From Escherichia coli (GTDB lineage: Bacteria; Pseudomonadota; Gammaproteobacteria; Enterobacterales; Enterobacteriaceae), in the NCBI RefSeq assembly GCF_003334255.1, contig NZ_QOWU01000119.1: a stretch of DNA of 3,540 nt; one strand, given 5' to 3'. Positions 284 through 3,540 of the stretch are shown one piece after another. The notes beneath the pieces were generated by a model that was not told the origin of the DNA, did not search any database, and saw only the letters and a program-made list of their open reading frames with translations. Numbering within the stretch: position 1 is the stretch's first letter; the number at the start of each line of letters is the position of its first letter. A program made the translations under genes and the position numbers.

Positions 284-359
284 GGCCCTTTAGCTCAGTG
301 GTGAGAGCGAGCGACTCATAATCGCCAGGTCGCTGGTTCAAATCCAGCAAGGGCCACCA
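284..359 (+). tRNA. ileZ: tRNA with anticodon CAU, tRNA-Ile2 (lysidine, AUA-decoding) type; 76 nt with encoded CCA
   Basis: Manual cloverleaf: acceptor GGCCCTT (284-290) pairs with AAGGGCC (349-355), discriminator A356, CCA 357-359. D-arm GCTC/GAGC; anticodon loop CTCATAA with CAT at 317-319; T-loop TTCAAAT. The sequence is close to E. coli ileX as I remember it. The symbol ileZ is by analogy with Stx-phage tRNAs and is tentative; from the anticodon alone an elongator tRNA-Met cannot be excluded. Confidence 0.8.
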
Positions 360-368
360 TATCACATA

Positions 369-445
369 CCGCCATTAGCTCATCGGGATAGAGCGCCAGC
401 CTTCGAAGCTGGCTGCGCGGGGTTCGAGTCCTCGATGGCGGTCCA
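369..445 (+). tRNA. tRNA-Arg, anticodon UCG; 77 nt with encoded CCA
   Basis: Manual cloverleaf: acceptor CCGCCAT (369-375) pairs with ATGGCGG (435-441), discriminator T442, CCA 443-445. U8 present; D-arm GCTC/GAGC with ATCGGGATA loop; anticodon stem CCAGC/GCTGG; loop CTTCGAA with TCG at 403-405; 5-nt variable loop; T-stem CGGGG/CCTCG (one G-U); T-loop TTCGAGT. Confidence 0.75.
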
Positions 446-723: not shown

Positions 724-1152
724 ATGTATTGCCGTGCTGTACCAGTTCTTGTTTTGATATTAGCCAGTCTGACAACTGGCTGCACAAAAGATGTATCGAC
801 AAATAATTATGATGCTTCTCTGTATCACTCAGATAAATTAATAAAGTCGCAAAATTTGAGCTCATCGGAACGTACCCCTGATGCCAGTGAAGAAATCAGG
901 CAGTATGCCATTCAGGTCAGGAAAGCCATAGAAGAACAGTTAAAGGATGCGAGTAAGTATTCAGGAAAAGAGTGTTCACTGAGAATGTATATGGCCCCGA
1001 ATGGTCTTCTGCTACAGGTTAAAAGAGAAAGCGGTGATCCCGATTTATGTCGTGAAGCGATGAATGCAGTAAAGAATGCTGATATACCATCACCACCGTC
1101 TTCAGGAGTATATAAAGCATTTAGAAATGGCGTGCTGGATTTTAAACTCTGA
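724..1152 (+). CDS. Predicted lipoprotein with a TolA C-terminal (domain III)-like domain; prophage cargo gene
   Basis: ATG 724 to TGA 1150-1152, 142 codons; GGAG at 712-715 is a plausible Shine-Dalgarno. N-terminus MYCRAVPVLVLILASLTTGC has a hydrophobic core and a lipobox-like TTGC with Cys20 and Thr at +2. A Ser/Thr/Asn/Asp-rich linker follows. The C-terminal 85 residues or so (YAIQVRKAIEEQLKDASKYSGKECSLRMYMAPNGLLLQVKRESGDPDLCREAMNAVKNADIPSPPSSGVYKAFRNGVLDFKL) align by eye with remembered E. coli TolA-III (...YAGQIKSAIESKFYDASSYAGKTCTLRIKLAPDGMLLDIKPEGGDPALCQAALAAAKLAKIPKPPSQAVYEVFKNAPLDFKP), including both Cys (codons 973-975 and 1048-1050), the GDP-x-LC motif and the terminal LDFK. GC is about 30-42% here versus more than 50% in the flanking genes. 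Confidence 0.8.
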   Translation: MYCRAVPVLVLILASLTTGCTKDVSTNNYDASLYHSDKLIKSQNLSSSERTPDASEEIRQYAIQVRKAIEEQLKDASKYSGKECSLRMYMAPNGLLLQVKRESGDPDLCREAMNAVKNADIPSPPSSGVYKAFRNGVLDFKL

Positions 1153-1175: not shown

Positions 1176-1328
1176 TCCTGATGATTTTGGGGCGCTGGAA
1201 AGATATTGTGCTGTGAAGTGTTAAATTCCTCACAATTCAGTAAGTTGACAGTTGCCTGTCAGACTGGGCATTTGTTAAAAAAATTTCGCATGGTGAATCC
1301 CCCTGAGCGGAGGGGCGACTGGTGACGG

Positions 1329-1334
1329 TATAAT
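1329..1334 (+). promoter_or_regulatory. Consensus -10 hexamer TATAAT without a convincing -35
   Basis: TATAAT at 1329-1334. No good TTGACA-like hexamer lies 16-18 bp upstream (AGCGGA at 17 bp). The consensus TTGACA at 1245-1250 is too far away to pair with it and has no good -10 of its own. Confidence 0.25.
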
Positions 1335-1340
1335 CTCTGA

Positions 1341-1462
1341 TTATCAAAACGAGAATGACGCGGGTTTAGTGGCACCGGGCTGAACTCACCGGGAGGCACC
1401 CGGCACCATGTTCATGGTGATACAGAAATGCGGCTTCAGCCCCTCTCCGGAGGGGCTTTCTT
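1341..1462 (+). ncRNA. Hypothetical small structured RNA of about 120 nt, running from the candidate -10 to the intrinsic terminator
   Basis: There is no credible ORF in this interval. Consecutive hairpins: CCGGG-aggca-CCCGG (1389-1403), perfect palindrome CACCATG-tt-CATGGTG (1404-1419), and the terminator hairpin at 1438-1457 followed by a T-rich tract. Purely structural inference. Confidence 0.25.
1438..1462 (+). terminator. Rho-independent terminator, + strand
   Basis: AGCCCCTC (1438-1445), loop TCCG, GAGGGGCT (1450-1457): an 8-bp GC-rich stem followed by TTCTTAT. Confidence 0.6.
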
Positions 1463-1468
1463 ATGGAC

Positions 1469-1496
1469 AAAAAAGCCCGCGCTGGGAGACGCGGGC
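1469..1496 (-). terminator. Rho-independent terminator, - strand, back to back with the + strand terminator
   Basis: On the + strand: A6 (1469-1474), then GCCCGCG (1475-1481), 8-nt loop, CGCGGGC (1490-1496). Read on the - strand this is a 7-bp GC stem followed by TTTTTT. Confidence 0.5.
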
Positions 1497-1680
1497 GGCA
1501 AGGAATAAACAATAAAACGTGAAGTAATATTTCAGCTGGCGAATAATACCCCATAGTAATCACTCTGCGCAACTGCGCGGCCTTTTTCGTATTGCGGGCT
1601 GTAGTCTCCCTTCTGCCATTGTCCTGTAACTTCCGGACTTCAGCTCGCTCCTTATCTGACTCACAACATTATCCCGACCG

Positions 1681-1686
1681 GGAGGA
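1681..1686 (+). promoter_or_regulatory. Shine-Dalgarno sequence for the esterase gene
   Basis: GGAGGA at 1681-1686, 3 nt upstream of ATG 1690. Confidence 0.6.
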
Positions 1687-1689
1687 TTC

Positions 1690-3540
1690 ATGACATTTAA
1701 ACACTACGATGTGGTCAGGGCGGCGTCGCCGTCAGACCTTGCGGAGCGACTGACACAAAAACTGAAGGAGGGGTGGCAGCCATTTGGCAGCCCTGTGGCC
1801 ATCACGCCTTATACCCTGATGCAGGCCATTGCGGCGGAAGGTGATGTCACCACACCGGTGGTGGTGCAACCGTCGGGTGATGGTGGCGCTGTTATCAGCA
1901 CCACCAGCGAACCGGAATATTACTTTGTCATTGCGCTGGCCGGGCAGTCCAACTCGATGTCTTTTGGCGAGGGGCTGCCGCTGCCGGAGACATATGACCG
2001 TCCGGACCCGCGTATTAAACAGCTGGCGCGTCGCAGTACGGTGACGCCGGGTGGTGCCGCCTGTAAATATAACGACATCATTCCGGCAGACCACTGTCTG
2101 CATGATGTGCAGGATATGAGTAACCTGAATCATCCTCATGCAGACCTGAGTAAGGGACAGTACGGTTGTGTGGGGCATGCTCTGCATGTTGCCAAAAAGC
2201 TGCTGCCGTTTATGCCTGCGAATGCGGGTATCCTTCTTGTTCCATGTGGCCGTGGCGATTCGGGATTTACTGCGGGGGCCGAGGGGGCGTTTAACGAAGC
2301 GTCGGGAGCGACCGCAGGCTCGTCCCTGTGGGGGGCGGATAAACCGCTGTATCATGACCTGGTCAGCAGAACCCGTGCGGCCCTGAAGAAAAATCCGAAG
2401 AACGTGCTGTTATCAGTGATCTGGATGCAGGGAGAAAAAGATGTCAGTTCGGGGAGACATGCAGAACACAATGCGCTTTTCCTTGCCATGGTAAATCAGT
2501 TCCGTACGGAACTGGCAGATGTGGCAGAGCAGTGTACTGGCGGGACAACGGCCAGCGTCCCGTGGATTTGCGGTGATACCACGTACTACTGGAAGGAAAG
2601 GTATGCAGCGCCGTATGAGGCGGTTTACGGTGGGTATAAAGGCAAAGCTGCGCAGAATATTCACTTTGTGCCGTTGATGACGGATGAGCATGGTGTGAAT
2701 GTGCCGACAAACGAGCCGTCAGAAGATCCGGACATTATCCCGGCGGGATACTATGGCGCTGCGTCACGCACTGCCAGTAACTGGACGTCAGCCGATCGTA
2801 AAACGCACTTCAGTTCATGGGCGCGAAGAGGCCTTGTTTCAGACCGCCTGGCAGGTGCCATTTTGCAGTACGCCGGGCGGACATTATCGTTCCTTACCGG
2901 GCAGAGCGCACCGCAGTCGGGTGGTACAACTCCCGGTGATGATGTCAGTCCGGGGGTACCGGGTGTTGAGAAACCGCAGGATGGCGGTGTTGCTGGTACT
3001 GGTCATGATGAGGCCGTGAGCAGTACCAGGACGGTGGCTGAATATGATGCGAACAGTGGAAATGGTGTATGGACAGAGCAGCAGTGGGGGGCTGCCGGTG
3101 GCAAAGGCACTGTGACTGATGACGGTGGACGGAAAGCGCTACGACTGGAAAAACAGCCCGGTAAACTGACGTCCTGGAAAATGTTCCGTACTGTTGCAGT
3201 GGAGGAGGCAAAAAATCTTCTCAGCAAGGGGGGTGAAATTGCCGTACGGTTCAAAATTCCGGATGGAAGCGAACTGGTGAACGGACAGTTTGTCTTTGGT
3301 CTCTACTGGCCGGTGTCGCAGTGGGCGTCAGGCGCGGCAGCAAACAGTATGCTGGCATCATTCTTCCTTCAGACGGATGCATCAAATCTGAATCTTATGC
3401 ACCACAAGGGCACGTCGAATGCACAACTGGGTACATTTGGTGCGTTTGACCATAACTGGCATACGGTTGTTTTCCGCTTTGCGGGAAATAACAGCGAAAG
3501 AGTCGTTCCGGTGATTGATGGTACAGAGCAGACGGCGTTT
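1690..3540 (+). CDS. nanS-p: Prophage-type sialate (9-O-acetyl-N-acetylneuraminate) O-acetylesterase, NanS-p family; 5' partial, continues past the window end
   Basis: ATG at 1690 with a strong SD. I translated all 617 codons to the window end with no stop. The N-terminus MTFKHYDVVRAASPSDLAERLTQKLKEGWQPFG... matches the DUF1737-type N-terminal domain. It is followed by the SGNH/SASA esterase block YYFVIALAGQSNSMSFGEGLPLPETYDRPDPRIKQLAR with the catalytic GQSN serine motif, as in E. coli NanS (YjhS) and the Stx-phage paralogues. A Gly/Pro/Thr-rich linker (about 2890-3010) and a further C-terminal domain follow. Confidence 0.9.
   Translation, partial: MTFKHYDVVRAASPSDLAERLTQKLKEGWQPFGSPVAITPYTLMQAIAAEGDVTTPVVVQPSGDGGAVISTTSEPEYYFVIALAGQSNSMSFGEGLPLPETYDRPDPRIKQLARRSTVTPGGAACKYNDIIPADHCLHDVQDMSNLNHPHADLSKGQYGCVGHALHVAKKLLPFMPANAGILLVPCGRGDSGFTAGAEGAFNEASGATAGSSLWGADKPLYHDLVSRTRAALKKNPKNVLLSVIWMQGEKDVSSGRHAEHNALFLAMVNQFRTELADVAEQCTGGTTASVPWICGDTTYYWKERYAAPYEAVYGGYKGKAAQNIHFVPLMTDEHGVNVPTNEPSEDPDIIPAGYYGAASRTASNWTSADRKTHFSSWARRGLVSDRLAGAILQYAGRTLSFLTGQSAPQSGGTTPGDDVSPGVPGVEKPQDGGVAGTGHDEAVSSTRTVAEYDANSGNGVWTEQQWGAAGGKGTVTDDGGRKALRLEKQPGKLTSWKMFRTVAVEEAKNLLSKGGEIAVRFKIPDGSELVNGQFVFGLYWPVSQWASGAAANSMLASFFLQTDASNLNLMHHKGTSNAQLGTFGAFDHNWHTVVFRFAGNNSERVVPVIDGTEQTAF

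Follow-up and report, generated by a model that had tools for sequence, protein, structure and literature searches.

The plus strand of positions 1288-1465 in the window (the whole stretch of Escherichia coli DNA analyzed here, 3,540 nt, from contig NZ_QOWU01000119.1) is very probably a prophage small RNA (sRNA) gene of the STnc100 family, possibly with a longer isoform starting from ~1234. The Rfam STnc100 covariance model (RF02076) matches 1259-1468 (+) with a score of 165.6 bits (E 1.3e-38), against a gathering score of 47 bits, and the match is full length (model positions 1-206 of 206). The helices of the family are kept, with compensatory changes, except that helices P2 and P5 are invariant and therefore uninformative. 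The prophage setting is also that of STnc100, from a moron site to esterase/lysis genes with a convergent minus-strand sRNA. The element is thus an ordinary member of a known family, not a new one. Weak minus-strand Rfam matches to OmrA-B (21.8 bits) and anti-hemB (19.2 bits) were dismissed, as they lie far under their thresholds.

The original prediction for this DNA was a structured, Hfq-associated sRNA gene with its own terminator in a prophage late region, and family membership and the published homologs support it. The unit proposed, 1329-1462, consists of real elements but is too short: since RF02076 matches 1259-1468, it represents the 3' two-thirds of a catalogued sRNA family, and the closing helix needs 1288-1295. 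The features of the element are as follows.

1288-1465 (+), core STnc100-type sRNA, short form of ~175 nt, based on the RF02076 match, the aligned start of the 172-nt PasD2 and published short forms of ~177-187 nt
1288-1295 (+), closing helix P1, 5' strand GCAUGGUG, pairing with 1404-1411
1299-1314 (+), hairpin P2, CCCCC UGAGC GGAGGGG, invariant
1315-1361 (+), helix P3 (1315-1317 paired with 1359-1361) around the hypervariable arm 1318-1358, where a TATAAT is located
1362-1387 (+), hairpin P4, with compensatory changes at two pairs
1389-1403 (+), hairpin P5, CCGGG AGGCA CCCGG (ACCGGGAGGCACCCGGCACC / CCGGGAGGCACCCGG), almost invariant
1404-1411 (+), closing helix P1, 3' strand, supported by covariation
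1412-1437 (+), variable single-stranded linker, for this copy a probable seed and Hfq contact region
1438-1465 (+), intrinsic terminator, stem 1438-1445 with 1450-1457, tail UUCUUAUG

Prophage setting and relatives

The window corresponds to the "moron" site in the late region of a lambdoid prophage, with the following surroundings.

10-243, DNA adenine methyltransferase gene, 3' end
284-359 (+), tRNA gene 1, tRNA-Met(CAT) according to ARAGORN; the equivalent gene in RefSeq is tRNA-Ile (ileZ)
369-445 (+), tRNA gene 2, tRNA-Arg(TCG)
724-1152 (+), moron ORF, 142 aa, N-terminus lipoprotein-like, matching the TolA C-terminal domain
between the moron ORF and the esterase gene, intergenic region of 537 nt
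from 1690 (+), SASA/NanS-p-type (sialate) esterase gene, ATG at 1690, followed by lysis genes
1466-1661, perhaps to ~1740 (-), convergent partner sRNA, with terminator-like and promoter-like sites
1496-1475 plus a U run to 1468 (-), partner sRNA terminator, GCCCGCG UCUCCCAG CGCGGGC followed by UUUUUU, strong

The same arrangement is present at 97.7% identity in ~20 complete E. coli genomes. Strains G1/2 and SCU-104 are among the carriers of this prophage, and SCU-104 is 100% identical over 1229-1700. The gene order in one of these is RusA, antiterminator Q, hypothetical, methylase, tRNA-Ile, tRNA-Arg, "TolA", the gap, and then esterase, DUF1378, DUF826, holin, lysozyme, and lysis protein. The window tRNA-Ile2(CAT) and tRNA-Arg(UCG) are the equivalents of Stx-phage ileZ and argN; argO (tRNA-Arg UCU), the third of the usual tRNA trio, is absent in the window and present in Sakai Sp4 and Sp5. 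The C-terminal 90 residues of the moron ORF match the TolA C-terminal domain (NF007065, E 1.7e-29; TIGR02794, 75.9 bits), and PGAP names the product TolA. Such a phage-borne decoy of TolA domain III could hinder colicin or filamentous-phage entry.

Tree et al. (2014; PMC4104026) described this layout in Sakai, where at least eight prophages carry, downstream of PR', a convergent pair of Hfq-bound sRNAs flanked by a moron gene and a conserved phage ORF. The dyad upstream of the esterase gene is also found in Sakai Sp5 and Sp4. In Sp5, the STnc100 copy (207.7 bits) lies directly downstream of stx2B, with AsxR immediately after it on the opposite strand. Matches to a 501-nt query occur in 1152 of the 5426 complete E. 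coli genomes; the number of places per genome has a median of 2 and a maximum of 7. STnc100 ranks with the most abundant of the annotated sRNA families, and experiments have detected several members; EDL933 carries 11 Rfam STnc100 copies, one of them confirmed by northern blot. Some viral contigs carry two STnc100-type copies on the same strand, 275 or ~470-484 nt apart (L008 at 9250 and 9525; L009 at 12707 and 13191; L013, L044, L066, L021, L005, and others). These pairs are tandem duplications with different arm and linker cassettes.

EcOnc27/sRNA103 and EcOnc04/05/06/13 belong to the same family as the window RNA, and PasD is a sub-threshold relative. EcOnc27/sRNA103, from Stx2 phage Sp5 of O157:H7 Sakai (also EDL933/86-24), lies at the corresponding site, with stx2B as the moron on one side and the esterase gene on the other. 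It is Hfq-bound, converges with a minus-strand sRNA and is 85% identical over window 1230-1410; its northern probe matches the Sp5 STnc100 copy. It differs in linker and terminator (Sp5: CAGUAUACAGAGAUUAGGCAUAUACCAA...), so its targets are likely to differ from those of the window RNA. Its partner is AsxR, whereas the window partner is EcOnc08/21-like. EcOnc05 of Sakai Sp4 has ~90% identity over window 1380-1700, with the same terminator, minus-strand partner and esterase leader, but its 5' half (arm and P4) and its linker are of another type. Sp4 shares the layout of tRNA, dyad, and esterase gene; unlike the window, it lacks a moron ORF in the interval from the tRNAs to the dyad and carries the third tRNA, argO.

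PasD1 and PasD2 of EPEC E2348/69 are located at the same position, upstream of esterase or holin genes, and PasD has recently been described as sharing ancestry with STnc100. They share the 5' GCAUGGUGAAUCC, a P2-like hairpin, and a P5-like element, and their RNA start aligns to G1288. PasD2 scores 41.4 bits against the STnc100 model, under the gathering score, and PasD differs in its linker, its seed UGUGAG and its terminator. The window RNA is not itself a PasD: the core alone aligns, and UGUGAG does not occur in 1288-1465.

The original prediction named AsxR and AgvB as sRNAs of such regions. They are indeed neighbors at such loci: the anti-sRNAs AsxR, AgvB, and EcOnc03 are Hfq-bound and come from the same lambdoid intergenic dyads. 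However, they are 51-60 nt long, lie on the opposite strand, differ in sequence, and serve as FnrS and GcvB sponges. The conserved 3' part of AsxR and AgvB has been given as AGUAUCUCAUGC(U/A)(A/G)UUGCCCGAACCCA(U/C)UCGGGC. The AgvB and AsxR Rfam models (RF02702 and RF02703) had no match at E<=1 on either window strand, whereas AsxR of Sakai Sp5 scored 88.1 bits in a like search.

The window partner is ~90% identical to EcOnc08/EcOnc21 of Sakai Sp4 (~271 nt) and to the EPEC E2348C_1409-1408 IGR sRNA (182 nt), for which the seed CUUGCG has been proposed. Its 5' end is uncertain: ~1537, 1650-1661, or further upstream. The scan called a promoter-like site, ATGTCA-17-GATAAT, at 1696-1668 (-); it overlaps the esterase start codon, so a long form would run antisense to the 5' UTR of the esterase gene. 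An AsxR-type promoter, TTGCGC-N18-TATTAT (-10 at 1548-1543, -), could give a short partner form of ~70 nt. Between the dyad and the esterase gene there is a second terminator-like hairpin at 1565-1590 (+), CTGCGCAACTGCGCGG followed by CCTTTTTCGT, which is conserved in Sp4 and Sp5. The minus-strand complement of this hairpin supplies the TTGCGC -35-like hexamer of the AsxR-type promoter. The 9-mer ACCGGGAGG occurs both at 1388-1396 (P5 hairpin) and at 1677-1685 (esterase ribosome-binding region); this repeat is a lead only, because ~24 such 9-mer pairs are expected by chance in 3.5 kb.

StxS and the lambda 6S RNA, the PR' leader RNAs, are likewise short terminated late-region transcripts, read through by Q-modified polymerase. 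They start at PR' directly after Q and end at tR'. At locus L127, 97.7% identical to the window, the Q gene ends at 3610 and the element is found ~2.7 kb further on, near 6290-6465, with a hypothetical gene, the methylase, two tRNAs and a TolA-like gene in between. The element is therefore not a PR'-proximal leader, and the suggestion that it could equally be a terminated leader of the late operon is unsupported as stated.

Conserved helices and variable cassettes

The structure was taken from comparative evidence rather than from single-sequence folds. For homolog set 1, 120 viral contigs were fetched with a core 26-mer, 67 unique versions were aligned, and pairs were counted for a six-helix structure; the 26-mer spans P5 and the 3' strand of P1 and thereby fixes those columns. 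Homolog set 2 (175 unique sequences) was retrieved by the 5' motif alone and is free of this bias. In set 1, 98.3% of cells were paired, against 37-51% in slid controls. Compensatory changes occurred at six pairs, in 61 cells against 19 in shuffles, and 0 of 500 shuffles reached 61.

Closing helix P1 covaries in set 2. Pair 1290-1409 is A-U in 90 sequences, G-C in 69, and G-U in 12 (paired in 172/175), and pair 1289-1410 is C-G in 86, U-A in 40, and U-G in 18 (n = 175). Because this covarying helix joins 1288-1295 to 1404-1411, the RNA starts at or before ~1288, at least 50 nt upstream of the proposed start near 1341. A covariance analysis across homologous prophage regions, as proposed with the original prediction, thus finds conserved helices with compensatory changes, but the conserved unit extends 5' beyond the proposed start.

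The two hairpins noted earlier between the TATAAT and the terminator are present at 1362-1387 (P4) and 1389-1403 (P5). In P4, 7 sequences have C-G in place of U-A, and 14 have G-C in place of A-U; the most divergent homolog group has a different stem here, which is self-complementary nonetheless. Helix P3 switches from G-C (49) to A-U (18) at pair 1317-1359. In hairpin P2, every pair is kept with essentially no variation; since the sequence is invariant, its pairing is neither supported nor opposed, although the sequence itself is strongly constrained. The P5 15-mer is identical in 165 of the 175 unique homologs, a set retrieved independently of the P5 motif, so P5, like P2, is constrained in sequence beyond pairing alone. 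The sequence invariance of P2 and P5 hints at a function beyond that of a passive scaffold.

The G+C-rich terminator hairpin with a T-rich tail is likewise present as described. The 1438-1457 hairpin has 8 pairs, 6 of them G-C, is followed by TTCTTATG, and was called terminator-like by the scan, which found 5 terminator-like sites in 1100-1750 against 0.8 expected. Its stem shows compensatory changes at three pairs across homologs. The interrupted U tail of the window terminator (UUCUUAU) falls short of what is ideal for Hfq.

Single-sequence MFE folds gave modest z-scores, from -1.3 to -2.2. They favor a long-range pairing between P2 and the terminator, because CGGAGGGGC is common to hairpin P2 (1308-1316) and the terminator (1449-1457). 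This pairing is probably incidental, as it cannot form in variants with other terminators. Positions 1403-1418, CACCAU GUUC AUGGUG, form a perfect local hairpin that rivals closing helix P1 for the CACCAUG strand; it is found in the window-type linker only, not family-wide.

Two segments of the element are modular. For typing, the linker was extracted as 1411-1437, of which 1411 itself pairs in helix P1. The arm (1318-1358) occurs as at least 10 sequence types and the linker as at least 11, in 20 combinations that assort independently. The window arm type occurs with four linker types, and the window linker type with four arm types. The window element is a mosaic, with a Sp5-like 5' half (85%) and a Sp4-like 3' half (90%), and its arm and linker cassettes make it one among many STnc100 variants.

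Promoter candidates and the 5' end

The following plus-strand features bear on the 5' end.

1219-1227 (+), promoter candidate P1 (upstream), putative extended -10-like TGTTAAATT
1229-1240 (+), conserved leader block CTCACAATTCAG, in the long form only
1252-1284 (+), promoter candidate P2 (family-wide), TTGCCT at 1252-1257, 18 nt, TG at 1273-1274, A-rich -10-like tract TAAAAAAAT at 1276-1284

Promoter candidate P2 would put +1 at ~1288-1291 and give an RNA of ~175 nt. This agrees with PasD2, for which the published 5' end at position 741157 of NC_011601 falls on the G of GCAUGGUGAAUCC, the base aligned to window G1288. The -35 TTG is kept in 70 of 72 unique homologs and the -10 TGnTA in most. 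In the most divergent homolog group, a cleaner TTGAC(C/T)-N18-TGTTAATCT or TAGATT stands at the same distance from the core. The -10 in the window (TAAAAA/AAAAAT) is weak, and the consensus promoter scan called no plus-strand promoter at 1252-1284.

Promoter candidate P1 would start a long form of ~230 nt near 1233-1235, judging from the sequence, a size in keeping with the EcOnc04/05/27 bands of ~222-247 nt on northern blots. The site reads TGTTAAAT, TTTTAAAT, or TGCTATGTT in most homologs of the E. coli type. The -10-like element lies 1 nt before CTCACAATTCAG in the window and 1-2 nt before it in most variants, and the leader block shows high column conservation in a 73-sequence alignment. 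The RNA form of the block, CCUCACAAUUCAG (1229-1240), contains CUCACA, a motif that is enriched in PasD RIL-seq targets and complementary to PasD UGUGAG; this could be chance. The Rfam model starts ~30 nt upstream of the likely 5' end, taking in the tract of promoter candidate P2, and ~25 nt downstream of the possible long-form start.

Published RNAs at this position (EcOnc27/sRNA103, EcOnc04/05/06/13, and PasD1/2) span 172-247 nt; all are Hfq-bound, and every one of them converges with an sRNA on the minus strand. Northern sizes are ~177 nt for EcOnc06, ~187 nt for EcOnc13, ~222 nt for EcOnc04 and EcOnc05, and ~235/247 nt for EcOnc27, whose 247-nt form is destabilized without Hfq. PasD1 (173 nt) and PasD2 (172 nt) of EPEC, from the same genomic place, have RIL-seq partners. 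By homology with EcOnc04/05/06/13/27, PasD1/2, and STnc100_4, the window copy would produce a discrete, Hfq-associated RNA of ~170-250 nt. The 5' end in use may be ~1288 or ~1234, and processing from an upstream transcript is also possible. As a full account of the gene, namely a 3'-UTR-derived RNA without its own promoter that is cut from the moron or late transcript, we regard processing as unlikely. It is compatible with the two EcOnc27 bands (235 and 247 nt), with the bracketing of PasD2 with its upstream gene in the published Table S6, and with homology to other prophages that begins just ~60-70 nt upstream of the core. However, TTGnCT-N18-TGnTA is found at a fixed distance from the core across clades with unrelated upstream genes, and RpoD binding has been reported at the STnc100 promoters of Salmonella LT2.

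Proposed action and alternative gene models

In the proposed mechanism, the conserved multi-helix 5' domain (closing helix P1, invariant P2 and P5, covarying P3 and P4, and the hypervariable arm) would carry a 3' part, the linker and the terminator with its U tail, that binds Hfq as in the characterized relatives. By the same analogy, the variable linker would serve as the seed for base-pairing in trans with mRNAs of host and prophage, and the set of targets would change with the linker cassette carried on the common scaffold. Positions 1412-1437 and the terminator are taken as the Hfq-binding, target-pairing end because of the CRAC peaks of the homologs and the chimeras and seed position of PasD. 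In homologs, Hfq CRAC peaks extend over the 3'-terminal ~80-110 nt (~80 nt in EcOnc27); northern sizes and Hfq-dependent stability have been published as well. In PasD1, the RIL-seq chimeras fall within the final ~50 nt, and the proposed PasD seed UGUGAG lies directly 5' of the terminator, although the MEME E-values for this motif are non-significant. Overexpression of sRNA103 raised fimZ and espA transcripts, the latter apparently indirectly.

The terminator (1438-1465, +) stands back to back with that of the minus-strand sRNA (1496-1468, -), and the two would form a two-way stop between the moron gene and the esterase/lysis genes. Only Q-modified polymerase from PR' should pass it, and a role of the terminator as a barrier to polymerase not modified by Q is plausible. 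The element could even be mainly a cis element that insulates the esterase/lysis genes from transcription of the tRNA/moron region in the lysogen, the RNA being a by-product without trans targets. We consider this improbable. The position between moron and lysis cassette, with a back-to-back convergent terminator, is kept in at least eight Sakai prophages, the reason for the dyad arrangement is called unclear in the literature, and no direct target or mechanism has been established there for any STnc100 member. On the other hand, the homologs are abundant, Hfq-bound and partly Hfq-dependent for stability, they form many RIL-seq chimeras with mRNAs, and a plain terminator would not require a conserved ~120-nt 5' domain with covarying helices.

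The near-invariant core (P5 ACCGGGAGGCACCCGGCACC and P2) might also be a sequence-specific module rather than a passive scaffold, with the dyad controlling esterase/lysis expression or the fate of the late transcript; we think this quite unlikely. The P5/P2 core could then bind the ribosome or a protein, or could pair with a long minus-strand RNA carrying CCUCCCGGU opposite the esterase ribosome-binding site (1677-1685). If this were true, the swappable linker would be a second, independent function.

On the shorter gene model of the original prediction, the TATAAT at 1329-1334 would drive an sRNA of ~105-130 nt that begins near 1341 and runs to the terminator. The perfect -10 hexamer does exist, stretch 1341-1465 (125 nt) folds well alone (z = -2.61), and the Hfq CRAC peaks of homologs lie mainly over this 3' portion. 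The model is nevertheless very unlikely. The TATAAT is at chance frequency (1.32 occurrences expected, 1 observed; at least one copy in 150 of 200 shuffles), and it is without a -35 or a TG extension. It lies in the hypervariable arm and its -35 position falls within invariant hairpin P2 (1299-1314). It is kept in 13 of 72 unique homologs, the rest having TATGAT or unrelated sequence. The RNA would lack the 5' strand of helix P1 and invariant hairpin P2, and the published homologs, by northern blot or RNA-seq, are ~172-247 nt. The TATAAT was thus ruled out as a promoter, and a transcript starting near 1341 does not withstand its author's own test, a discrete RNA of about 100-130 nt with that 5' end.

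That the region holds no plausible coding frame was borne out, and a small-protein gene or dual-function RNA translated from AUG1408 is hardly credible: an SD-like GGGAGG lies 11 nt before AUG1408 within the most conserved stretch, and ribosome footprints are on record for some of the STnc100 copies in EDL933, with ribosomal coverage values of up to 3.2, but the ORF runs for 2 to >51 codons of unrelated sequence across homologs, and the SD-like bases are partly within the P5 stem.

The reading as an STnc100-family sRNA gene gives this prophage locus a corrected gene model, with a 5' end at ~1288 or ~1234 instead of 1341, and adds covariation support for closing helix P1. SNPs in EcOnc27, the Stx2-phage copy, have recently been reported as predictors of haemolytic uraemic syndrome. 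With an invariant core whose arm and linker cassettes assort independently, the search for targets of the window RNA is best directed at 1412-1437.
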